DNA of 63,569 nt, filler included, from Reclinomonas americana ATCC 50394 (Eukaryota), in assembly GCA_048213135.1 (NCBI GenBank). It is 10 parts of 4 records of this genome, joined end to end, with 100 filler letters (N's around TTAATTAATTAA, not from the genome) between each part and the next. Parts side by side here need not be neighbours in the genome. Positions count along the whole stretch, not along the records: positions 49,786 to 62,458 come from PS015787.1; 9 more parts are not named here. One strand, 5' to 3'. Below the pieces are notes generated by a model. It did no database searches. It saw nothing but the letters and a program-made list of their open reading frames with translations, and was not told the origin of the DNA. A program made the translations under genes and the position numbers. Shown piece by piece: positions 4,142-62,591 of the stretch (positions are counted from its first letter, which is position 1; every line of letters starts with the position of its first letter).

Positions 4142-4773
4142 TAGGAGGAGATCGCACGAGACACACGTAGAGAGAGAGACGACGGANNNNNNNNNNNNNN
4201 NNNNNNNNNNNNNNNNNNNNNNNNNNNNNNTTAATTAATTAANNNNNNNNNNNNNNNNNNNNNNNNNNNNNNNNNNNNNNNNNNNNGAGAGAGAGAGAGA
4301 GGACGGAGAGAGAAGAGAGGAGAGAGAGAGGAAGAGAGAGAGAGAGAGAGAGGAAGAGAGGCATGCATGGAGGAGCATGCACAGACACAACGCTGAGAGA
4401 GAGGCACGGATGGATGCACAGGCACAACGCAGAGCCTGAGACAGATGCGATCGGCGGAACACATGCACACACGATGATGATCTTCACCTCGGATTGCACG
4501 AGGAAATACGCCTCGCCGCGATCGCCAATCTTCATGCAAATGTCGACGGCCCGACCATTGATCGAGAGCGCCACCTGCTCGCCGGCCTACATAAGCCACC
4601 ATACACACGCACAAGAACAAGCTGCGAGAAGGAGAGAGAAACGCAACAATCTTCTCGTGCGTGCGAAAGGCCTTGAGCCTGCCAAAGCGCACATGAAAGG
4701 GCGTACAATGCAGAGTGCCATCCTCGCGCTCCACCACCACCACATCAATGGCGCCACTCATGAAATCCAACAT
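1796..4773 (-). CDS. LPIN: Lipin / phosphatidate phosphatase (multi-exon, spans a contig linker, 3' exons missing)
   Basis: N-LIP exons [34 protein letters not shown] and [11 protein letters not shown] (4773-4487). Middle motif [16 protein letters not shown]2 region [20 protein letters not shown]...[12 protein letters not shown] / [19 protein letters not shown]...YLSSR with intact DxDxT catalytic motif. GT-AG introns. Confidence 0.93.
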
Positions 4774-6942: not shown

Positions 6943-7347
6943 GAGGAGAGAGAGTGTGTAGGAAGGGTGGTCGTTCGGGACAAAGTGTACGACTACTTGA
7001 TAGAGTAGAAACGGAGGTGACGTAGTTACAACGCACATAGAATAACATATAGAAGAGAAGCACAGAGTGCNNNNNNNNNNNNNNNNNNNNNNNNNNNNNN
7101 NNNNNNNNNNNNNNTTAATTAATTAANNNNNNNNNNNNNNNNNNNNNNNNNNNNNNNNNNNNNNNNNNNNGTAGTAGTACGACGTACGTACGTAGTACGT
7201 ACGTACGTACGTACGTACGTACGTACGTACGTACGTACGTACGTACGTACGTACGTACGTACGTACGTACGTACGTACGTACGTACGTACGTACGTACGT
7301 ACGTACGTACGTACGTACGTACGTACGTACGTACGTACGTACGTAGT

Positions 7348-9387: not shown

Positions 9388-11171
9388 CACAAAGAGAGAG
9401 ATAAGGGAAAATGAATGAGAGTGAGAGGAAGAATGGATTTTGGAGATGAGAAAGAGGAGTCGTGATGCACGCGCGACTTTTTTGTTGATGTGCGATGTGG
9501 CGAGAGAAGCATTGTGGTGTGTGTACGTGTGTGCGTTTTCCGTTGTGTAGACTGGCAGAGTTGTATTGCGTGATGTTGCGTGTCACAAGTTGCGACGCAG
9601 CGTTTGCAGTGAGAGCAGAGAGATGGGCAGTTGAGTTTGTGTTGCTCCATGCGTGTCGTTGTTAGGTTGGCGCTGACGGTCATGTGTTTGCAGAGAAGCG
9701 CACCTCGTCGGTGGTGCCGGATCTGCATGGATCGGAGGATGAGCAGGTGGCCGAGCTGAAGCGGATGAACATGGAGAAGGAGCGCGAGTTGCAGGAGGCT
9801 GCTGGTGGGCTTGGCTCTTGTTTGTTGTTGTTGTTGTTGCTGTTGTTTGGTGGCTTACTGTGGTTTGTGCGTGTGCAGAACTTGGTCTCAAGCTCTTCCA
9901 GGCCAGCGAGGAAATGAAGCGTGATCTGGAGGACCGTGATGCGGAGGTGCGTCTTGTACAAGATCTATATGCTGTGATCGTACTGTCATTCTCACGTTCT
10001 TTGTGATATCCTTGGCTTCGTCTTCACACTGTCTCTCCTGTTCTTGTCCGTGTTGCCCACTTTCCCTCCCTTTCCCTTTCCCTCCCTTCCCCTTTGCCTC
10101 CCTCCCTTCCCTCCCCTTCTCACCCCCTTCCCCCCGCTACAGATCAGGAGCATGTCAATGCAGCTGCGCCAAAAGGACCTGACCATTGCCGACATGGAGA
10201 ACTCGCGACGACTGCTGATCGAGGAGCATCAGGCGGAACTGCAGTCGCTGAGACGACAGCTGAACACGCTAAAGACGGAGAATGTGGTGGCACTGGAGGA
10301 GGCGGCAGCGTTGCGCCAGCAGGCCGGCCAGTCGGACGATGTGTCGGCGCGCATTGCGTCTATTATGGAGCAGAAAAAGTCGGCTGAGGCCGAGTACACG
10401 TCGCAGGTATGCGAGGGAAAGAGAAGAAGTCGCCTTTGCGCACTGCTCCATTGTCTCACACCTCCTCCTCCCACTTCCTCGCAGCTCGACGAGTTGCGTT
10501 CACAGCTGTCGGCACGCGACGAGAGGATTCAGNNNNNNNNNNNNNNNNNNNNNNNNNNNNNNNNNNNNNNNNNNNNTTAATTAATTAANNNNNNNNNNNN
10601 NNNNNNNNNNNNNNNNNNNNNNNNNNNNNNNNCACTGGAGGAGTTCCGGGTGCACCAGGACGCTCTGCGACAGGCCGAGTACGAGCTGCACGAGCTGCGG
10701 AAGCGCATGGCACTAACGCCGCGTGGTGGAGGTAAGGGGAAGTGATTGTAGAAGAGGGGCGAATGCCTGCTCACCACACGAGTGATCTTGGCGCACAGCT
10801 GGCATGCACATGATGGCAGGCAACCTGGTGGGAGCCGGCGACCGACCAAAGAACCGCACACCGCTCGAGCAGTTCTTTGCGCTGGTGAGTCTGCAGTCAC
10901 TCGCTTGTCGATGCAGCTGCTCTCCTCTCGCTCACCCCTGCACAGCTGTGTCTGATGATTCGAGTCGGTGCCGGTCCCGAGTGGGACGTGTGGCGCGAGG
11001 ATACACGGTCGCTGTACGAGGAAGCCATTCGGCGCAACGTGCCGTTTGCCAACGTGAGTGACTTCAGCGTGTGAGCCTGCACAGTCGCTGGCTTCTCACT
11101 ATTTCTCTCTCTCTTCTCTTGCGCAGTGGTACACATGGACACGCGATCGCCTGATTTCGCCCTCCGAGTAA
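9086..11171 (+). CDS. Coiled-coil protein with a small aromatic C-terminal domain (multi-exon, spans a linker)
   Basis: Exons rich in E/Q/R/L heptads (EQVAELKRMNMEKERELQE, IRSMSMQLRQKDLTIADMENSRRLL) with GT-AG introns. Ends with PLEQFFAL / LYEEAIRRNVPFAN / WYTWTRDRLISPSE*. Confidence 0.7.
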
Positions 11172-13627: not shown

Positions 13628-13965
13628 GTGTTTAGAGAGAGAGAGAGGAGGGAGGGGGCGGGGGGGGGGAGGGGGAGGGAAGGGAAGGAAGGAAGGAAGA
13701 GAGAGAGAGAGTGGAGGAGGGAGGGAGGGAGNNNNNNNNNNNNNNNNNNNNNNNNNNNNNNNNNNNNNNNNNNNNTTAATTAATTAANNNNNNNNNNNNN
13801 NNNNNNNNNNNNNNNNNNNNNNNNNNNNNNNGCAGCAACAGCAACAGCAACAGCAACGGCGACAGTAACGAGTCATCTGACACGCCATCGGTTTGAGTGT
13901 GGAGGGCCACGAATAATAGCAGTGAAAATTACAAAGATTGGTGTAAACACAATCACGTCTTTATC

Positions 13966-21280: not shown

Positions 21281-22928
21281 CAGGCGGAGATGCTGCTGTG
21301 ACCCCGCTCGCCCATATTATTTCATCTCTCTGACTATTCCTCACTTGAATCTTCTTCATTGCTTGCCACGGCGTTACTATGATTACCACACAGCTTGTTG
21401 TTGTCGCGCAGTTGTCGGAGAAGTCGGACTCGCGATGTTGTTGTTGACATGTGTCCACCAGATCCATCATCCCTTCCCTCTAACTGCACGGCGGGTCAGA
21501 ACGAGTACGATTTGAAGAAGAAGAAGAGGGAGGACACAGTGGCCTGTATCCGTATTGATAGCAGAACATCCGAATTCGTACAGTGCGTCAATGTCGAGTG
21601 GGGAACGAAGACTCGCGACAAGCTCTGCGTGCACGCACCGCCCACATCGCCAATCTACTTGCCCTCCAAGTCACACACACATTGCGTTCGATAACAGTCA
21701 AGCCTTTTCACTCTACACACCCACCACCACCACCACCACCACACCACCAAGCAAAACACACACACACACACGCAGACACAGAGACTCAGACACACACATG
21801 CACACGCAGAGAGAGAGCGAGAGGAACCAACACGCGCAGCAGTTCCATTCTGCTTGCGCGGCCACGTTTTCTCATTTCACACAAACACACAAACACACAT
21901 TCGCCTCTCCTCCACACATCGTCGTGATCGCCCGAGCCCCTCGCCTCCTCCTCCTCCTTCTCCTCCTCCAGCCCTTCAGACTCTCAGGGTCCAAAGTCTC
22001 CACAGGCGCCGCCAAAGCCGCCCGATCCGTACGATTCCACCACCACCTCGCCTGAATAGTGTGCCGTCGCCCATTGACCACCGACATTTGTGTTCACCTC
22101 GCCACCATGCGGTGCGCCCAGCTCCTCTGCAAACTCGGCCGAGATGGGCTCCATTTCAAAGGTTACTGGCCTGTGTGATGTCGAGTGGTGTGTTCAGTAA
22201 CAAAGGAGACGCATAAAAAAAAACGGACGACACAACACAGAGACACACGCACAAAACACGCACGCGCAGTGCGAGGAGATAGTGTGTGTGTGGAGCAAAA
22301 GCGGCCAGTGCGAGAAGGTTCAACGCGACTTCTCGCAGCACTGAACTGAACACGAAAAGAGATCGATGCCACGCACAAGCAGTCGGGAGAGCAGTGGCAT
22401 AGAGAGGCACACACTCATACACAGAGAGAGAGAGGAGCGTGCGATGTACGAGAGTGCGCACACGCGTGTGAGAACAGTCGCGTGCGAGACTTCTCGCACA
22501 CGTCATTGCGGTGTCAGGCGTGCGCACACACGCAATCGCGCACAACGCAAGTCACACAGGAAGAGACCGATGGGGGAGAGGGGGAGGGGCAGCGAGAGGA
22601 AGACATGCCCGTGTGCGTCTGCGTGACTGCGCGCGAGCACACACTGACCCCTGAACACTCACCAGGCGCTCTCCACTGTGCCGTTAAAGTAGTAGCGTGA
22701 CATCGCTGTGCCTCCTTGCCTCCTCTTTTTTTCTTTCTTTTGTGTGGGCGGCTGGCCAAGGCCAGATGGGCGCGCGCGAAGGAAATTGTGAAACTCTGAT
22801 TCCACTACCCAATCCGGCCGACGGACGCNNNNNNNNNNNNNNNNNNNNNNNNNNNNNNNNNNNNNNNNNNNNTTAATTAATTAANNNNNNNNNNNNNNNN
22901 NNNNNNNNNNNNNNNNNNNNNNNNNNNN

Positions 22929-32075: not shown

Positions 32076-33395
32076 GGTCGGCCCCGGCTGGGGAGGGAGG
32101 GAGAAGGGAGGGAGGGAGGGAGGGAGGAGACAGTCAGAAAAAGGAATGAAAGGAAAAGAAAGAGAGAGAGATAGAAAGAAGAAAAAGAAAAGAAAGAAAG
32201 AGATAGAAGGAAGAAAAGAAAAGGAGAGAGAAAGAAAAAGAAAGAAAGAGAGAAAGAGNNNNNNNNNNNNNNNNNNNNCACCCCCCCATTCCATCAAAAT
32301 GCGGGAGGACAAATGCGACTCGCGCGATGCAAATTGTCACTTTGATCGATGGATGATGCAGTGCGGCGCCGGCTGGGGTGGCGACACAACACCATAGAGA
32401 GTGCATTGTGCGCAGCTGCAGACATCAGCATAAACGCAAGACAATTCAAAGTAGACAATGCGACTCGCGCTCCGTGGATTGTCACTTTGATCAATCCCTT
32501 TCTTTTGCTTTGTTGCGCGCATGCACGATGATGATCTCGAGTCGCTCGACGCGCTTTGCTTCAGTGTCGGTCGTGTAAGTGAGTCTCGCCTTTTTGATTT
32601 CGCATGTGTGTGTTGGTTTGTGTCACTTTTGTGTGCTCACTGTGAACCACAGTGCGCTGCTCCGACGATGCTCTTGTCGGTTCCGCGTGCATTCTGCAGT
32701 ATTTGAGTGCAGAGGATGGTGAGAGAGAGTCGGTTAGCGCATTGTTGACTGAGTTGTATTCATATCTTTCTCTTTTTCTTGCCACAGTCATGTTGATGTT
32801 GCTGTTGGGCGGGGAGATCGACGGCGACGATGCGCGGATCGAGTTTGACATTGAGGGCGGTGTGAGCGGCGATTGTGGTCTGTGTGCGTGAGTTGTCTGA
32901 CTGCGTTGGTTGTCAGTGGGAATCACTCAGTTTTGCAGAGGTGATTGACTTTGATCAGCTGGACGTTGTGTGTGACGGTGGTGGTGCGGTGCAGTTGTTG
33001 GCGCCTGTACGGCCGTTGTGTGCACACTGTTCACATCAGTGGTGAGTCTCGTTCCACAACCATGTTGACTTGTCTCACTCATGTTCTCTCTCTCTCTCTC
33101 TCTCTCTCTCCTCTCGTCTCGTCGTACGACGACGACGTAGTACGTACGACGACGAGACGTACTCTACGACGTACGACGACGACGACGCGCGTCGGTCGTC
33201 GGCGTCGTCNNNNNNNNNNNNNNNNNNNNNNNNNNNNNNNNNNNNNNNNNNNNTTAATTAATTAANNNNNNNNNNNNNNNNNNNNNNNNNNNNNNNNNNN
33301 NNNNNNNNNTCGTACCAACCTACGTTCGTTACTACTACTACGTAGGTGGTAGGTCGTCGTTCCTACCTAACCAACTACTTGTACGTTCGTTCTCT

Positions 33396-46210: not shown

Positions 46211-49029
46211 TCATTCCGATGACACCTGCGGAGGGAGGGTTGAGAGGGAGAGGGATAAGGAACAGAGCGCTCGTGTTGGACTCACCACCAAAGAAAAAGC
46301 TGCCGATTGACAAGCCCTTGTTCTGAACTGCTCACGAGCGCATTGCTTGCTGTGTCGATTAACGGCAGCGGCGGCCTCCTTGGCCGTGGCACCAGAACCT
46401 TGCATCATTACATCCTGAGCGAGAGGAACGATGAATGACATACGCACGCACACAGACTTGTGCTGCTCTCCCTGTCTCACTCACTCTCACTCTCTCTCTC
46501 TCTCTCTCGCTTTCCCTCTCTCTCTCTCCTCAAGTCACCTTAATTAACCGCAAATGCAGCACACTTTCGACGGCACTCAGATGGCACAGACGACGAAATG
46601 CATCTGTGGCCTCACTGAGCGCCCCCGAAGCCGTCTCCAGCGCCTCCCTTGACACTGATTCGCCACTTAATAGCGCTACAGCAGGGGGGTGTGAGACGAG
46701 TGCGACAAGGACGGCAGTGGTGGAGACGACGCTGCATCCTCACCGTCGGCATACAGTGCACGAGTCGAGGCAGTCGGCGCTGTCGTGCTGCCACTCGATT
46801 GTGCCGTCTTTTCCACAAAATCGCGAATGAGCCGCAAGTTGGCTTCGCGCTTGGTCGTCTTGGCCGCCAGATGCAGACACGTGACAAAGTTGGCAATGCG
46901 CGGTGCCGTTCCCAGTTCCGCGGAGCCCACCTGTCGAATCTCCTCCAGGCACTCGTTGTACTGTTCGTGTTTTGTGAGCGAGAGAGACGAAAGAGACAAC
47001 TTGGAGGGGTGAGCGTACCTCCTTTCCTGTCGTGTCCAAGTGTCTCGCCACGTACAAGGTGAGAAAGAGGAGTGTGCGTGTCCAGAAGAGCAGCGTCCGT
47101 CGAACACCCTGCGATCGTGCATCAGAAACATATGAAATCCCCACGCATCGCCTCCCCTCCCCCTTGTCGCACCTTGGCACGTGTAATCACATGTAGATGG
47201 CGCACAGTGGCCGACCACTCGCACATTTCGTAGCAAACAAGACCGGCGATCAAGTGCCACGTGAGTACCTCACAGTGCGGCTCGGCCTCGGTGCCGCCCT
47301 GCATCACTTGCAGGTCCTCTGGAAGGAGGAGCGGTGAGTGACAGACTGAAGTACTGGAGAGAGAAGATCTCTCTACCCCCGCCCCCTCCCTCTCCCTTAT
47401 CTCCCTCTCCCTCTCTCACCGGCCAGTTCCCACGCCGCGCCAAGAACATCGCACGCCACATCGAAACGCAAAAATGAAGAAGCCGCCAGCGCCGCACGCT
47501 GCAACAAGAGCCAATGCAGGGTGCGCATGGCGGCTGCCCGCTGTGAGGCCACCGAGAGTGAGGAGTCGACGCCCGTGCGCGCCAGGTGGTTCTGCAGATC
47601 AGCGATACCGCGACACAAATGCCGATCGGCCGTGACCGCACCTGCGGGGGTGGGAATGAGGGGGTGAGTATGAATGGAAAATGGGGGACGGTTGGCACAC
47701 GCAACTCTCCTCCGTTGCATCGGTGTGCTGCAGTGCCGCGGCGGCCACCAATCCACAAATGACACCGCGCATTACCGTGGGAGCCGGTATCACACCCGAC
47801 ATGTCCACTCGCCACTGTACGAGCACCACAGCACGCTCCTCGACGTCGTTGGCCGACCGCAGTGCTTTCTGGCCGAGCTCGGCCAGGCAACCCCACTCGC
47901 GCAGCATGGCGTGGTGAAACATGCACAGCACGGCGTACTGTGCTTTCAGTGCCGCGGCCATGAACTGTGCGGCGAAAGAGAAAGAGAGGTGAGCGATAAG
48001 CAGGCACTCTTATGAATGGAGGTGAGACGCGCACCGTGTCCGTGACGTGAGCGACGCCGGTGGTCTCACTCGCCGGCGTCGAGGCGACCAGACTGATCAG
48101 CTGCACGACCGCCGCCTCTGCATGTGCGCCCAGGTAAGAGAGGGGCTGTCACGGGGNNNNNNNNNNNNNNNNNNNNNNNNNNNNNNNNNNNNNNNNNNNN
48201 TTAATTAATTAANNNNNNNNNNNNNNNNNNNNNNNNNNNNNNNNNNNNNNNNNNNNGAGAGAGAGAGAGAGAGAGAGAGAGCAGTGTTGGTCATTGGAGA
48301 CAACTCATCGGAGGAGGCGAGTGGCAAAAGAAGGCGATGTGTATGGAAGCAGGGATAACACAGGAAGAGGAAGGCCTGCGCATGCCCATACGACAGACAA
48401 CTCACCGCCAACACCGCCGATCCGCGACGCCCGATCGCTGCCTCACTGAAGCACTCATCGTGCACTGCGCGAAGCAAGTCAAACGATCGCACATCCTCGC
48501 CAGAAGTAGCAGCAGCAGCAGCAGCAGCAGCACGCGACGAAGTCGCACTCTCATCGACCTCCATATCCTCCACTGATCACTCTTTCATGATGAATGCACA
48601 AAAAAGGAGGGAAAAACGCTTGCGATGCAATGCAGACCATGAATGGTCTCCAGAGAGCGTTTGAGAGCGACCACACGCGCGTGCACAACTCGCGCATATC
48701 GCAGACACTGTCGCCACTGATCGTCGACCTCTGCAGTTGTCGAGCTGTGCGTACTGTGAGAGCGAGTTTGCCTCAAAGAGTCACACACTCTGTCGCGCGT
48801 TACCTCACGCGCTGTTCACAAGTGTGCATCGCCTGCTGTGTCGACTCCATCACGTCTGCGATCTGTGTGTTATACGAGTGTGTGAGAGTGTGTGAGTTGC
48901 AGTTCTTCTCAGTGAGTGCGACGTGACTGTGGTGCGACCCGACATCACTGCCCACTCAATGTCGGTGCCACACAGCAGCTGTGAGGACACAGTGTGCATG
49001 GTGGTGGAGGAGTCTTCATCGACCTCCAT
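46211..49029 (-). CDS. Alpha-solenoid/TPR-like protein, possibly MAU2/Scc4-like (multi-exon, spans a linker)
   Basis: Helical exons AALKAQYAVLCMFHH, ADRHLCRGIADLQNHL, LLLQRAALAASS.. and WHLIAGLVCYEMCEWSATVRHL with GT-AG introns. The resemblance to MAU2 is weak and by eye only. Confidence 0.45.
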
Positions 49030-49685: not shown

Positions 49686-49785
49686 NNNNNNNNNNNNNNN
49701 NNNNNNNNNNNNNNNNNNNNNNNNNNNNNTTAATTAATTAANNNNNNNNNNNNNNNNNNNNNNNNNNNNNNNNNNNNNNNNNNNN

Positions 49786-52569: not shown

Positions 52570-53723
52570 TCCATTTGCGATGCAGCAGCAGCAATTGATG
52601 CAACAGCAGCAGGAGGTGTGCTCCTCCTTTGTCCTCCTTCTCCTCCTCCTTCGATTCTTCCCGTTCTTATTATTGGTTTTGCGTTGCAGGAGGACGAGGC
52701 CAATGCACTGTACGTGCAACAAATGGAGGAGCGACTGGCCGAGTTGGAGCGACAGCAGCAGGTGTTGCTGTCACGTGAGCGGAAGCGTCGCAAGAAGGGT
52801 CGGCCGGCAGTGGCGGTGCCAGTGGGGTGAGCGCGCACGCACTCTCTCGATGATTTCTCCCGACCCTCTCTCACTCTCGCGCTCTTGCAATGTAGGGACC
52901 TGTCGGTGCAGGCGCAAAAGCGCGTGCTGAAGTATTCGCCGTACTTGGCGCAGATCTTCAGGGCCTCCAAAGGTCGCCTCGATCCCGACGACTATCCCGG
53001 CTTCGAGCGCTTCATGACGGAGCTGGTGGCGGCCGACTACGAGCGCGAACACTCAGCCACGCAGGGCGACGGTGCTGGTGCGGCGGCCGGCGGCGGCAGT
53101 GGCTCATCCACGGCCGATGGACCGCGGCCACCGTGGAAACCGTCGTCGTACAAGGTCCGCGATCGCGATCATCCGCGACGGCGCAATCTGTACGAGTTGC
53201 GTTGCACGCCGACCACTCGTTATCACCCATCATCCACTGACGCACACTCACTCTGTTGCTTACAAATGCAGAGACCCAACTCTCTCCTTCCTGGCCAAGG
53301 TGCAGATTCCAAACAAGGAGCGCAAGCCATCGAGCCGTCCGCCATCGCCTCCGCGCGCGCATGAGTACACGAATGGTGCCGACCATCAGAACCGATTGTT
53401 GTACGCTTCCAATGCGCCGTACGCACCGTCGGCATCTGCACCGCAGCGCGGATCGCAGCCAGCGACGGTGGCAGCAGCAGCCGGGGCCTCCATGCCTGTG
53501 CTGGCCAACTTGAAGCCTGTGCGCGGCGAGCGTTCTTCCACATTCCCGGCCATTTCGTTGCGTCCTACTCCTCCCTCTTGGGTTGATTCTTCCTCCTTGT
53601 TGCCGCTAATTTATTTCGTGGTCGACCACTGCAGTCCCCGGACACCGCGTGGCGGTAATCCAGTGTCGGTGGGGCCGGCTGCCTCGGCCTCGGCGGCGGC
53701 AGCGGCGGCAGCCAGTGCAATTG
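52570..53723 (+). CDS. Internal exons of a hypothetical coiled-coil / low-complexity protein
   Basis: Exons QQQQLMQQQQE / EDEANALYVQQMEERLAELERQQQ / DLSVQAQKRVLKYSPYLAQIFRASKGRLDPDDYPGFERFMTELV with GT-AG introns, bounded by gaps on both sides. Confidence 0.55.
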
Positions 53724-53743
53724 NNNNNNNNNNNNNNNNNNNN

Positions 53744-54989
53744 ATCCCGAGCCGGTTTGCGCTGCCGGTGCCGATGCCGGCGCCGCCGCTGGTGCTGCTC
53801 CCGCACGCCCCTTCTTCCCCACGGATTTGGCGGGATCTCGCAGCGCGTCGGCACGCAGCAGCACACACGCCTCGATGCGCAAGTGTGGCATGATGGTCGG
53901 GAACGCCCTGCCTCTCACCGTGAGCGCACACTCACGTGCACAGCAGGAAAACAACACATCATCCACGCAACTCGGCCAGCACACTCTCGACCCACGCACG
54001 ACACACGGCAGCATCATTCCCCGGCACCACCGCCAGCGCCAATTCATCGTGCGACGTGCGAAACGCATCCTGAAAGTGCGCACTCACAAACGCCGGGTCC
54101 GTGCGCGCCAGCCGCTCAAACAACCAGTCGGTCACCGCATGCTCAATCGCCGTCTGCCTCGCCGCCTCCACACGCCCCAACAGCGCCAATCGCAGCGGCT
54201 TGCTCTCCGCCAGAATCGTCGACTGCGTGAACCGCTGCATCAACTCGGTCCACGTCTCCGCGCCCAACACCAACGCCTTGTCAAAGAACCACAACGAGAA
54301 GAAGTTGGCCGAGCGAATGTCGACTGTGACCAGCGATCTGCTTGCAAGAGTGAGTGCGAGGGGAGGGGTTGTTGGACCCTTTGCTTGTCTCCCACCTGTT
54401 GCAAAACGCCTGATCGTATGCCGAATGCTCCTCCGTGCATGCAAAGTACCCGTCGGCGTCCACCCGCACACCAGGAAACGCGGCAAGTGCGGGATGCAGT
54501 GGTCGCACAGTCTCCTGCAGCACGCCCAGTCGATGCAGAGTCTTTTTATGGTTGCATTGAAGAGATAGTGAGCGTGGGCACATTCAGTCACATTGTGTAT
54601 GATCAATCACCCGACCTGCACATGCATCTCCTCGTCAGAGAGTGCTGCAAACGCGCGCATGCTGTCACTACCACTCAGCGCCTCGAGCACTGCATGCAAT
54701 CACACACAGTTGAGCGCGAGAGAAAGAATGAGTGAGAGTGAGAGCTTATTTCTGTCTGCTCACCTTGATCGCGAACGTCGCGGCGCATCTGGTTCCACGC
54801 ATCGAGAGAGCCTCCGCACAGCTCGTCGACTTCGCGTTGAAACGTCGGCCACAGCTCAGTCACCTTGTGAGTGGCGTCGAGAGCCTCCAATAACAGAGTT
54901 GCCTCTGGTGTGGAGCTGGCCCCGGCCTCAGGCAGCAGCGGGAGCTTGCCAGTGGGAAGGTACTGCTCTCGAGTGAAGGCTTCCCACAT
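53744..54989 (-). CDS. Compact polymerase-palm protein resembling the PolA superfamily / phage-type hypothetical polymerases (about 5 exons; 3' end in gap)
   Basis: Spliced product MWEAFTREQYL...RDQ / VLEALSGS...HVQ / TLHRL...SAYDQAFCNR / SLVTVDIRSANFFSL...GAETWTELMQRFT...ESKPLR...RQTAIE...RTSHDELALAV...LAE / AFPTIMPHLRIE. It shows a motif A-like VTVDxxSAN and a motif C-like HDEL. Confidence 0.65.
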
Positions 54990-55008: not shown

Positions 55009-58000
55009 ATGGAAGTCCTGCTGTCCCGTCGACCGTTGCAACTGTCTTATCTCATGGGGCGAGAGAGTGCAAGTCGACATCGATGGCGATGCGTGGCCGT
55101 GCTTGCCGCGTTGCTGCTTATGGTACACACGGCCTCGGCTGGTAAGCAACCCCACGCGCGTGTGCGTTGTTGGCAAGCAAGTGAGTGACTTTTTGTAACA
55201 CAGCCATCACGGTGGCGGAGACGACGCTGTACTTGGTGGCGCAGTCGGACCAGTGCTTTTCGTACACACAGCGAGTGAGCATCACCAAGACGGGCGATAA
55301 CTTGCCGACGACCGCCACTGACTACGCGCTCTTCACGTCGTCGACTTGTGCGTACGCGTACAATCCGGCTCTGGTGATGACGGTGCTGTCGAGTACGACC
55401 GCGGCCGCCACGCTGACATTCGACACCAGCGCGGCCACCTCTTCGTGGTCCAGGTTTGCATTGTTTGTGCGCCTGTTGAAAGTATCCACCCTTTTTTGTG
55501 ACTTGTGTGGGTGAATAGTGCGCACTTGTGTGCCCGTGCAAACTCTTCCTCCGCGTTCCAGCATCTGAGCACGGTGTCACTGGCGGCGCCGTGCATTCGC
55601 ACACCGACACGCCTCCGCTTTGCGCTGTCGTGCTCGAGTGTGACAAACATTGGAGCGGCGGTGCCGTCCACACAGGCCATCACCATTGCCGGCACGAAAC
55701 TCAGCACGTCTCTCACGTACGGGTTGTCGACGAGCGAACTGTGCACAGGCGCCACCATCGACACGACCTCTGTGCCACTGGCCGTCTCGAATGGCGGTCT
55801 GACGCTGACCTACACCACGGCGACGACGGCGGTGACCGATCGATTCTTGTGCGCTCGCGTCACCGGCGCCACCACCAGCACGTGGGCCTACACCGGCGCC
55901 CAAGTGACTGCCAACCGCGTGTGCGTGCAGGCGCGCGCCACCGGCAACGCCAACATCTTGTTGCACCCCGGCGGCTGCTCCACTATTACGCAGCCGGAGG
56001 TCGTCACCGTGGCCACCACGTCCACGAACGCCTTGTCTGCTGGTGACGATTTCCTGGTGCTCTCCAGCACCACAGCCTGCGCTGCGAGTGACATTGTGTC
56101 CTCCGTGTCGGCCACCATTCTCTCGTCAACTTCGTTGGCGGTTCGTGCTTTCCCTTTATTTTTTGGTTGTTTTCACAGTTGATTCCCTCAGTTTGACACG
56201 GGATTGCGCAGTTTGACACGACACTGCAAAGTGGCGTCTACTCGGGCACGCTGTATCTGTGCACGCGTACCTTCAACGACGCCAATTTCGTCTTCACCGG
56301 TGCTACGGTGTTGGTCGACCGCGCTTGCTGGTCGACCTCGACGCTCACTGTGCAGGCTGGCAAGTGCACAAACGCGGGGTCCACCGTCATCACTGTCACC
56401 GGACTCGGCCTCCCAGGTGTGTATGATGATGCGTCGGCTTTCCAGTTTTGCTGACGGAAGGCTGAACCCTGCCTCCTTCTCTGACACGCAGTGGCATCGG
56501 CCACCACAACATATGACATTTTCACACCTGGCACGTGCTTGGCCGGCGGCACCATTGGTCTCACGGCGGCGTCGGCCACTGCCAATCGAGGATTGACCAT
56601 CACGCCCGACTTCTCATTTGCCGTGCAGCAAGCAATGACGTTTACCATGAGCGCACACACGTTGCGCGAACTCACCACCGGCTACGACATTTGCGTCTCC
56701 ACCGATTCGGCCAACAAGGCGTTTGTGCGTCATCATTTCTGATGAGGGCGGCGGCTTGAGTGACTGGCTTGCTCATTGCATTTGGCGCAGGTGTGGGTGG
56801 GAACTCGGCTGTATGTCAATGGACCCTGCATCGCGTCACCATCGACGCCCATCACCATTGGACTGCAAAACAGCGTCACGCAGAACCTGAAGCTGGTGGA
56901 CGCGACGGCAGCCAACCTGTACAGCCGGTCGACCGCCGGATGGGTGACCACCGACACTGTGTCGCTGTTTACCGACTCGTCTTGCACACTGGCCAATGTG
57001 AGGGTGTGGTCATTATTCTCCTGCTTTGTGCTCATGCTGAATGACGTGCGTGCACACAGTTGGTGGCAACAGCTCCGGTGACTGGCAAATTCGTGTTCAC
57101 GTTCACCGCGGCCAACTCTGTCACATTCCAGTTCGACTCGGTACTTTTCGGCGCCTCGCAGCGGAGCCTGTACATGTGTGTGTTGCCAGTTTCCGGTTCA
57201 TACGCCTATCTGGTCGACTTCCGCGTCGGTTGGTACCTCGCGCGATCCATGTTCCTCTGCTTCAATCTCACCGCCTGTGCATGCAGCTTCATTCTCGCTG
57301 AACCACGCCACTATCAGCACTGGCATTCGTAATGTGGAGTTTTTGGTGAAGGGAGCACTGCTGCCGCTGCCGTCTTTGTACGACGCCACGTCGGCGGCCT
57401 CCACAGCCAACCCCATCTACGTGCTGACCGCCACCGCCACCTGCAATGCAGGCGTGGTACCGACAGCACTGTTGTCGCTGACGCCAGTGACGAACCTGAC
57501 GGTGGCGGCGAGTGGTGCCACTGGTGCTGTGACCTCCGAGAGCGTCAAACTACTCGTCTCCACGCGCACGGGCACCGTGTGCGCCACACCAGCCACCAAC
57601 TTTGCCGCCCCCGGCACGTACTCACTGTGCTTCCGACCGGGTGACGGCCTCGGCTACAACCTGGTTGGCACAATCACGGTGCAAAGTTGCGCGCTGTATT
57701 ACCTGCCAGCCTGATGCGCACTTAGAAAACTCATTCCATACTTTGCAGCCGACAAGGCGGTTGTCTCGGTCACAACACCCACGTGGAAGCCTCTCGGCAC
57801 GCAATTCACGTTTGTGATTCTCGGCAGCTTCACCGACTGCGTGGCGTTCTCCTGGCAGCAATACTCGCCGGCGACTGTCAACTGCGTCGCTGGAAACGAC
57901 TTGTCGGCTGGTGTCACCGGCTTGGCGGCGACATCCTCGTCGGTAACTCTCGGCCTCGATCGCTACAACGCGGCGTCTGGCCTGTACGGCAGCTACACGA

Positions 58001-62397: not shown

Positions 62398-62591
62398 GAG
62401 TGGCCTTGTGTGTGTGTGTACGACACTGCGTCTGTTGTGGGGTCATTGCCGACACCGCNNNNNNNNNNNNNNNNNNNNNNNNNNNNNNNNNNNNNNNNNN
62501 NNTTAATTAATTAANNNNNNNNNNNNNNNNNNNNNNNNNNNNNNNNNNNNNNNNNNNNACATTCATGCATGCATTCAATCACAATTTGTCT

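Follow-up and report, generated by a model that had tools for sequence, protein, structure and literature searches.

Right-hand polymerases of family B, such as RB69 gp43, the herpesvirus polymerase, Pol alpha/delta and the archaeal KOD/Tgo enzymes, are 570–1200 amino acids (aa) long, and the herpesvirus helicase-primase contains a subunit that is itself derived from a polymerase. Family A polymerases (Pol I, T7, Pol nu and Pol theta) have a palm with an Asp on the first strand and an Asp-Glu hairpin. An Asp plus Asp-Glu arrangement is also found in Thg1, which repairs tRNA ends and which, with the Thg1-like proteins, forms the small palm-domain enzymes known as 3'-5' tRNA repair polymerases. 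RlaP and the CCA-adding enzymes, which have a Pol beta-type fold, act on RNA and tRNA ends as well. Section 3.4.9 of a jumbo-phage review from the Aravind group (PMC7824862) treats RlaP, the CCA-adding enzyme and Thg1 as RNA-end-restoring enzymes. Here we describe a polymerase-like gene of the protist Reclinomonas americana ATCC 50394 that belongs to a much smaller kind of palm protein. It lies on the minus strand of a 63,569-nucleotide stretch of DNA, the whole of which is referred to as the window. The best explanation, which we hold with middling confidence, is that it encodes an active miniature nucleotidyltransferase that would act on the ends of tRNA or other RNA, and that was acquired from a virus and domesticated in eukaryotes.

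The resolved part of the gene extends from 54989 to 53744 and consists of five exons and four GT-AG introns, starting with an ATG (Table 1). All four junctions restore one reading frame, and the five-exon product is colinear with its nearest homologue, P0002, over residues 1–292, unbroken at the four junctions (blastp E 2e-28). The spliced model gave one continuous match (residues 33–262, 126.5 bits, E 5e-39) to a hidden Markov model (HMM) of the family. As this HMM was built without the window sequence, the match is far beyond chance. Exon 4 contains the catalytic core and reached 116.9 bits against a family HMM that included its own product, P0001, whereas exon 1 showed a weak colinear match at positions 32–72 (E 0.02). 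Across the intron 4 junction, AFPTIMPHLRIEACVLL of the window product aligns to AIPEYATYIRVESFALV of P0002; retention of this intron would introduce a TGA at 53961-53959 and yield a product of 274 aa. The splicing into five exons is thus supported by homology. The window product keeps the invariant D, K, R and D of the family, plus the G and the E of DE. An earlier note on this DNA had read the locus as a compact family A (PolA) polymerase gene of probable phage or prokaryotic ancestry, interrupted by four GT-AG introns. These introns are present, as are the four motifs on which it drew (VTVDIRSANF, RTSHDELALAV, ESKPLRLALLG and ARQTAIEH), at the positions that it gave.

An undescribed family with a predicted palm fold

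An HMMER scan of 1.84 billion representative proteins with P0001 as query retrieved 78 proteins at E ≤ 1e-3, the best of which was P0002 (E 3.9e-14, 43% identity). Most were 300–345 aa long, with a matched region that begins near residue 115. The earlier note had pointed to a likeness to uncharacterised phage-type proteins, and this family, mostly unnamed and with phage members, agrees with that. For the family alignment, 48 of the 78 matches were combined with P0001 into 49 sequences, omitting the very short, the very long and two spurious-looking proteins (P0006 and P0014). Four residues are invariant in this alignment (D114, K154, R157 and D201, numbered as in the 305-aa member P0011), and S112, A118, N119, F120, T145, G162 and E202 are conserved in at least 90% of the sequences. 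The family signature is SIDxKKANF ... SKxxRQ..FG ... S.DE, and the window product has both the profile match and the residues that define membership.

Existing libraries hold little that corresponds to these proteins. The window exons had no usable match in Pfam, PHROGs or PDB sequences. No Pfam family of their own was found for the members (20 scanned, and all 49 at E ≤ 10), PHROGs and NCBIfam had no match among 11 members, and PADLOC had none among six. Searching PDB with a profile of the family alignment yielded chance matches only. In a word-indexed search of longer proteins, exon 4 retrieved nothing and the eukaryote-type alignment retrieved just two of its own members. The sole recognised domain, R3H, lies at the N-terminus of 4 of the 49 aligned members and of several others, and members are named 'hypothetical protein', 'R3H domain protein' or nothing at all in the databases. 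Full-text searches of the literature, which did not extend to the supplements of the jumbo-phage review, where another label may be used, found no description of the family. A term look-up over the whole text of PMC7824862 returned nothing that resembles the family protein, and its section 3.4.9 has nothing of the kind. The family is real and undescribed; its fold class is already known, the family is not.

We modelled P0011 with AlphaFold2 using the 49-sequence alignment, which yielded a mean pLDDT of 96.3 and a pTM of 0.90. The model starts with five N-terminal helices (residues 3–83), followed by a strand (109–115) with D114 at its end. Next comes a helical insert (118–186) that carries K154 and R157, and then a hairpin (195–198/202–206) with D201 and E202 at the turn. 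A helix, three further strands and a small C-terminal element complete the fold. A strand that ends in Asp, a finger insert and a hairpin with an acidic turn are what identifies a palm, and in the model their order is the classical palm-fingers-palm. Exon 4 of the window, modelled with the family alignment, showed the same order of elements (pLDDT 95.2): the Asp closes strand 2–6, and the Asp-Glu pair is found at the turn between strands 88–95 and 98–103. Judged from these secondary-structure positions, the catalytic carboxylates would lie side by side in three dimensions. The palm fold and the compact product without an exonuclease domain, both claimed by the earlier note, are supported by the predicted structures and by a family of ~300 aa in which the palm is preceded by a helical domain.

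Foldseek found no PDB match at E ≤ 0.001. Nearly all of the 50 weak matches listed were polymerases or polymerase-derived subunits of replication complexes, with middling values. They included rotavirus VP1 (an RNA-dependent RNA polymerase), family B Pol alpha and Pol II, reverse transcriptases of retrons and diversity-generating retroelements, Abi-P2, family A KlenTaq and Pol theta, Y-family Dpo4 and the herpesvirus helicase-primase subunit. The longest structural alignments, which span the finger and N-terminal parts, are to polymerases, and reach up to 265 residues for family B versus ~150 for the family A matches. Comparison of the family with four jumbo-phage family B polymerases by hhalign gave probabilities of 0.4% (whole proteins) and 0.2% (cropped to the polymerase half), and family B leads from a language model were weak (0.82–0.85). 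The predicted structure is that of a right-hand palm enzyme with an overall shape nearest family B, and it is not a demonstrable member of either family A or family B.

The differences from family B are considerable. At ~300 aa, the new family lacks both the exonuclease and the family B-type N-terminal domain and has just the five-helix domain in front of the palm, and its fingers and thumb are tiny. Motif C reads x-D-E, as opposed to D-T-D in family B, and none of the members scanned matched DNA_pol_B (PF00136) or DNA_pol_B_2 (PF03175) in Pfam. By eye, the finger motif K-x3-Q-x2-F-G has the same Lys-to-Gly spacing as K-x3-N-S-x-Y-G, which we take to be the family B motif, and an almost unvarying Asn behind the first Asp occupies the place that the sugar-discriminating Tyr presumably has in family B. 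Among the other known systems, the polymerase-derived herpesvirus helicase-primase subunit is one of the closest to the new family. Thg1 would be the nearest functional analogy, being a small palm-domain enzyme as well. However, Thg1 differs in the spacing of its acidic motifs, which in the new family are ~87 residues apart with the finger insert in between. Family members had no match to Thg1 or Thg1C in Pfam, and Thg1 is not among the fold matches listed. RlaP and the CCA-adding enzymes have genomic company and a presumed task (the restoration of RNA or tRNA ends) in common with the new family and are frequently its direct neighbours, but their fold is unrelated to its right-hand palm.

The protein may function as a pair. 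A self-complex prediction of P0011 scored 0.44 versus 0.01 for the best control, with three runs agreeing in 100% of contacts and a partner pLDDT of 90. This mark was reached by 21 of 30 proteins that were solved as pairs of one chain and by none of the 23 solved as single chains. The predicted interface is formed by the conserved C-terminal strand (residues 284–298), and a dimer via this strand is plausible. In two members, P0003 (688 aa) and P0005 (704 aa), the family domain is naturally duplicated in tandem. All conserved residues are intact in the first copy, whereas the second has lost both acidic motifs and kept the Lys-Arg helix, which suggests that these tandem forms are active/inactive pseudo-dimers.

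Distribution, phylogeny and genomic neighbourhoods

In GenBank, only 3 of 50,697 phage records match the family: Salicola phage SCTP-2 (440 kb), an uncultured 642-kb phage and a 38-kb gut phage scaffold. IMG/VR loci were retrieved via one conserved motif, using a four-sequence alignment; 23 contigs, most of them 100–412 kb, carry a family gene, and P0011 alone as query found no viral locus. Three further contigs, binned in metagenome-assembled genomes (MAGs) of Bacillota, Bacteroidales and Mycoplasmatota, are phage-like by gene content. Giant viruses carry the family as well. Among the BFVD models, a Klosneuvirus protein named 'R3H domain protein' matched strongly (E 1e-20, TM 0.91), as did proteins of Hyperionvirus, Clandestinovirus, Barrevirus, Dasosvirus, Terrestrivirus, Pandoravirus (two), Moumouvirus and Tupanvirus. 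Also matching the fold is a Medusavirus protein of 695 aa that is named DEDDy 3'-5' exonuclease; its name and length suggest a fusion of an exonuclease with a polymerase-like domain. On one contig of a giant-virus MAG, an R3H-fused copy is accompanied by two tRNA genes. In eukaryotes, members were found in the transcriptomes of the malawimonad Gefionella okellyi, the stramenopile Platysulcus tardus and the amoebozoan Soliformovum irregulare (R3H-fused), to which the window gene adds another copy.

To place the window gene among these relatives, we used a quick maximum-likelihood tree of 72 rows. This included the window model and 68 of the 78 matches (two spurious proteins and eight shorter than 200 aa were dropped), with P0003, P0005 and P0065, which have two profile matches each, split into separate rows. 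The window gene groups with P0002 (SH-aLRT 97), within a six-row clade (SH-aLRT 98) that also contains Gefionella, Platysulcus, P0020 and P0055. This clade adjoins another of 14 rows (SH-aLRT 96), most of them R3H-fused and tandem forms, and all of these are nested among phage-type sequences. In this tree, the eukaryotic copies thus form a clade of their own beside the R3H-fused forms typical of giant viruses. As the tree is midpoint-rooted with long branches, and a careful search is unfinished, we infer rather than read from it that the transfer went from viruses to eukaryotes. Two eukaryote-type members, P0130 (the longer Gefionella isoform, 502 aa) and P0020 (473 aa), carry an N-terminal CxxC...CxxC region at residues about 20–110, with sub-threshold matches to Yippee/Mis18-like domains (E 0.07–0.2) and to HECT_2. 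This region, which is missing from the window protein, may bind zinc and recognise nucleic acids, as a module that only eukaryote-type members have.

Next, we focused on the genes that surround the family gene in phages. Open reading frames (ORFs) were crudely called in 28 loci and clustered by blastp; one locus (L019) did not contain the full gene, leaving 27 loci that represent 14 lineages at 50% identity of the target protein. From each of the 24 neighbour clusters that most loci have in common, one or two members were annotated with Pfam, and a subset also with PHROGs. A CCA-adding enzyme or tRNA nucleotidyltransferase is present in 14 loci, and no more than three genes away in 11 of them (5 lineages). 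The RNA-repair nucleotidyltransferase RlaP occurs, at an offset of 1 or 2, in 4 loci (3 lineages). In a single lineage, 4 loci have an Fmt-like formyltransferase directly downstream; YqeY is present in 9 loci and an RNA ligase in 4. In a further megaphage locus, a T4-type RNA ligase 1 lies immediately upstream. tRNA genes were found within the fetched flanks of 6 of the 27 loci, and in two (L004 and L018) arrays of 19 and 23 tRNA genes end less than 450 bp upstream of the family gene. NAD salvage genes are also neighbours (NAPRTase in 9 loci, an isochorismatase-type gene in 8 and NUDIX in 5), and DNA methylases, TnpB and an HNH endonuclease recur as well. No replication or recombination gene recurs among the annotated neighbours. 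The placement beside CCA-adding enzymes, RlaP, RNA ligases and tRNA arrays suggests that the family supplies a step so far missing from the tRNA repair and counter-defence of viruses.

Ten records have no CCA-adding gene close to the family gene. Half of these carry one elsewhere, including a 2.3-Mb MAG in which it may be the host's own enzyme; in the complete SCTP-2 genome no CCA-adding gene was found. Full-size family B polymerases are encoded in four of five carrier records, and family A polymerases in none of the five. As carrier phages already encode a full-size family B polymerase, the small protein is not their replicase.

Several other features of these loci stood out. Four conserved neighbours have no assigned function: L006:9154-9918 (254 aa), L006:7520-8851 (443 aa), L005:6507-6884 (125 aa) and L009:9554-10000 (148 aa). 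The first is found in 10 loci, one to four genes upstream. One representative of each had no match in Pfam, PADLOC or PHROGs, and the 254-aa and 443-aa proteins had no relatives among PDB sequences; all four may be partners of the enzyme. The NAD salvage genes, including the nicotinamidase-like isochorismatase-type gene, are interleaved with tRNA-related genes in L006–L010, L013–L015, L017 and L026, and form a recurring auxiliary module. Within the 23-gene tRNA array of L018, a 303-kb phage contig, ARAGORN made a tmRNA-like call (L018:6502-6816) with the tag peptide GNENYAYAYAAA, which overlaps two tRNA calls. In two phage contigs, TnpB or IS605 OrfB-type genes with a Cas12f-like TNB domain (L025:8768-9889 and L036:2400-3860) adjoin the family gene or lie within 6 kb of it.

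Proposed function and alternatives

Reading the window gene as an active nucleotidyltransferase for RNA ends builds on the gene model obtained by homology, the family membership, the intact residues, the predicted palm fold, the neighbourhoods and the fusions to nucleic-acid-binding domains. From these we infer that the enzyme is catalytic, that it acts on RNA or tRNA, and in which direction the gene was transferred. The enzyme, of ~300 aa, would consist of an N-terminal helical domain, a palm strand with the first Asp, a short finger insert with Lys and Arg, the Asp-Glu hairpin and the remainder of the palm. It would have at most a very small thumb-like C-terminal part and no exonuclease domain, and its C-terminal strand is predicted to pair two subunits. 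The two acidic positions would bind two catalytic metal ions, and the Lys and Arg would hold the phosphates of the incoming nucleotide, as in classical polymerases. Such an enzyme could add a few nucleotides, probably ribonucleotides, to the 3' end of a nucleic acid. Its substrate would be tRNA, or other RNA, that was damaged by host nucleases, and its action would precede CCA addition or ligation; in phages it would work alongside the CCA-adding enzyme, RlaP and RNA ligases. The eukaryotic copies most likely go back to a viral gene, which became domesticated and acquired its spliceosomal introns afterwards. The product of the protist gene would be expected to catalyse the same reaction, either to maintain RNA in the cell or to act against viruses.

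If active, these proteins would be among the smallest right-hand polymerase-like enzymes known, and the compact scaffold could serve as a tool in enzymology. The intron-bearing protist copy would represent a viral enzyme that was taken up and kept by eukaryotes. From the earlier note, the reading as a minimal polymerase-like enzyme of viral ancestry is supported; membership of family A is not shown, and RNA or tRNA is a more likely substrate than DNA.

DNA as the substrate is the main alternative, although an unlikely one, in which the protein is a miniature DNA polymerase or DNA-end filler that repairs viral or host DNA, fills its gaps or primes its synthesis. The family B-like shape favours this, as the nearest folds are family B DNA polymerases, and so does the Medusavirus protein with the exonuclease-plus-polymerase layout that its name and length suggest. 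R3H domains bind single-stranded DNA as well as RNA, which makes the R3H fusions compatible with this role. However, a family B polymerase is already encoded in most carrier records (four of five), and the recurrent annotated neighbours in the 27 loci are tRNA and RNA enzymes and NAD salvage genes, plus the DNA methylases, TnpB and HNH endonuclease, with none for replication or recombination. The Asn that, in our alignment by eye, takes the place of what we assume to be the family B Tyr would also argue against DNA.

A more specific proposal, which we consider unlikely, keeps RNA as the substrate and adds a template. The family would then be an RNA polymerase, unrecognised so far, that follows a template to rebuild damaged tRNA ends. 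It could, for instance, refill the 3' strand of an acceptor stem that was trimmed, ahead of the CCA-adding enzyme. This would make it a 5'-3' counterpart of the Thg1-like enzymes, present in jumbo phages, giant viruses and several protist lineages. Template-dependent editing of tRNA 3' ends reportedly occurs in some organelles, by an enzyme that has not been identified; if the proposal is true, the protist copies are candidates for this organellar enzyme.

It is rather improbable that the family is a catalytically inert, polymerase-derived scaffold that binds nucleic acids, in the manner of the herpesvirus helicase-primase accessory subunit. Across phage, giant-virus-type and eukaryotic members, the acidic positions, the Lys and the Arg show little or no variation, which would be unexpected for an inactivated enzyme.

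A true family A (Pol I-like) polymerase, as first proposed for this gene, is very unlikely. The palm with its first-strand Asp and Asp-Glu hairpin is found in family A too, and the HDEL of the window product resembles what we take to be the family A motif C. However, neither the window exons nor the members scanned matched DNA_pol_A (PF00476) in Pfam, even at E ≤ 10, the structural alignments to family A are the shorter ones, and the Lys-to-Gly spacing of the finger helix presumably follows family B and not the O-helix pattern. There is just as slight a chance of a nucleotide cyclase, or of a synthase of signalling nucleotides, whose palm resembles that of GGDEF proteins or class III cyclases: the palm core is common to both and GGDEF clusters in the Atlas matched weakly in structure, but at TM 0.27–0.30, below 0.5, with no GGDEF or cyclase match in Pfam and with the longest structural alignments to polymerases.

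The locus in the window

The window is draft eukaryotic nuclear sequence, with open frames that include WD40, lipin and IFT46-like proteins. It contains nine identical 100-base spacers (Table 1), which means that it is a chain of separately assembled contigs and that gene order across the spacers is meaningless. Each spacer consists of 44 N, TTAATTAATTAA and 44 N, and TTAATTAATTAA yields a stop codon in all six frames. The polymerase-like gene lies in the contig piece 49786-62458 (PS015787.1), in which the IFT46-like frame is also found, with a 274-N scaffold gap between the two. GC content around the gene is 0.60, similar to that of neighbouring stretches. Contamination by a phage or giant-virus contig was considered and rejected, on account of the four spliceosomal-type introns, the host-like GC and the IFT46-like gene in the same piece.

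It is very unlikely that the window copy, instead of being a working host gene, is a viral insertion that is decaying or was wrongly assembled. The gene is cut by an assembly gap, beyond which a family HMM search recognised no C-terminus of the family, and the window is made of contigs joined by spacers. Across the gap, the candidate last exon ends in GFKL...GALEAY, which resembles the C-terminal strand of the family by eye and has no family HMM match. However, an unbroken frame runs through the five exons and retains every conserved residue, the four GT-AG introns are short, GC is like that of the surroundings, a host gene shares the contig piece, and related transcripts exist in other protists.

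Table 1. Features of the polymerase-like gene and spacers of the window (positions in the 63,569-nucleotide stretch).
Feature	Position	Strand	Remarks
Exon 1	54764..54989	-	ATG 54989-54987; start of N-terminal helical domain; MWEAF, compared with MWRLF at the P0002 N-terminus
Intron 1	54690..54763	-	74 nt, GT...AG; P0002 alignment unbroken over junction
Exon 2	54616..54689	-	Translation and P0002 alignment
Intron 2	54542..54615	-	74 nt, GT...AG; P0002 alignment
Exon 3	54396..54541	-	Translation and P0002 alignment
Intron 3	54338..54395	-	58 nt, GT...AG; P0002 alignment
Exon 4 (catalytic core)	53967..54337	-	Motif A strand, finger helix and motif C hairpin; product P0001, 125 aa
Exon 4, motif A Asp	codon 54321-54319	-	Within VTVDIRSANF, 54330-54301
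Exon 4, finger helix	Lys 54201-54199, Arg 54192-54190, Gly 54177-54175	-	Translation
Exon 4, motif C hairpin Asp-Glu	54048-54043	-	Within RTSHDELALAV, 54060-54028
Intron 4	53912..53966	-	55 nt, GT...AG; splicing backed by homology alone
Exon 5 (partial)	53744..53911	-	Palm strand after motif C, then Ala/Pro-rich stretch into the gap
Assembly gap, 20 N	53724..53743		Interrupts the gene; 53744 is the gap edge, not the true 3' end
Putative 3' part of gene beyond gap	53386..53723	-	Open frame 53610-53386, candidate last exon by eye
Spacers, 100 bases each (nine)	4187-4286, 7071-7170, 10533-10632, 13732-13831, 22829-22928, 33210-33309, 48157-48256, 49686-49785, 62459-62558		44 N + TTAATTAATTAA + 44 N

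A divergent gene is located on the plus strand at 55100-56200. Its product is rich in Thr, Ser and Ala with Cys residues, has no Pfam match and looks like a surface or secreted protein. As this gene begins ~115 bp upstream of the ATG of the polymerase-like gene, it leaves no room for an additional N-terminal domain on the window protein.
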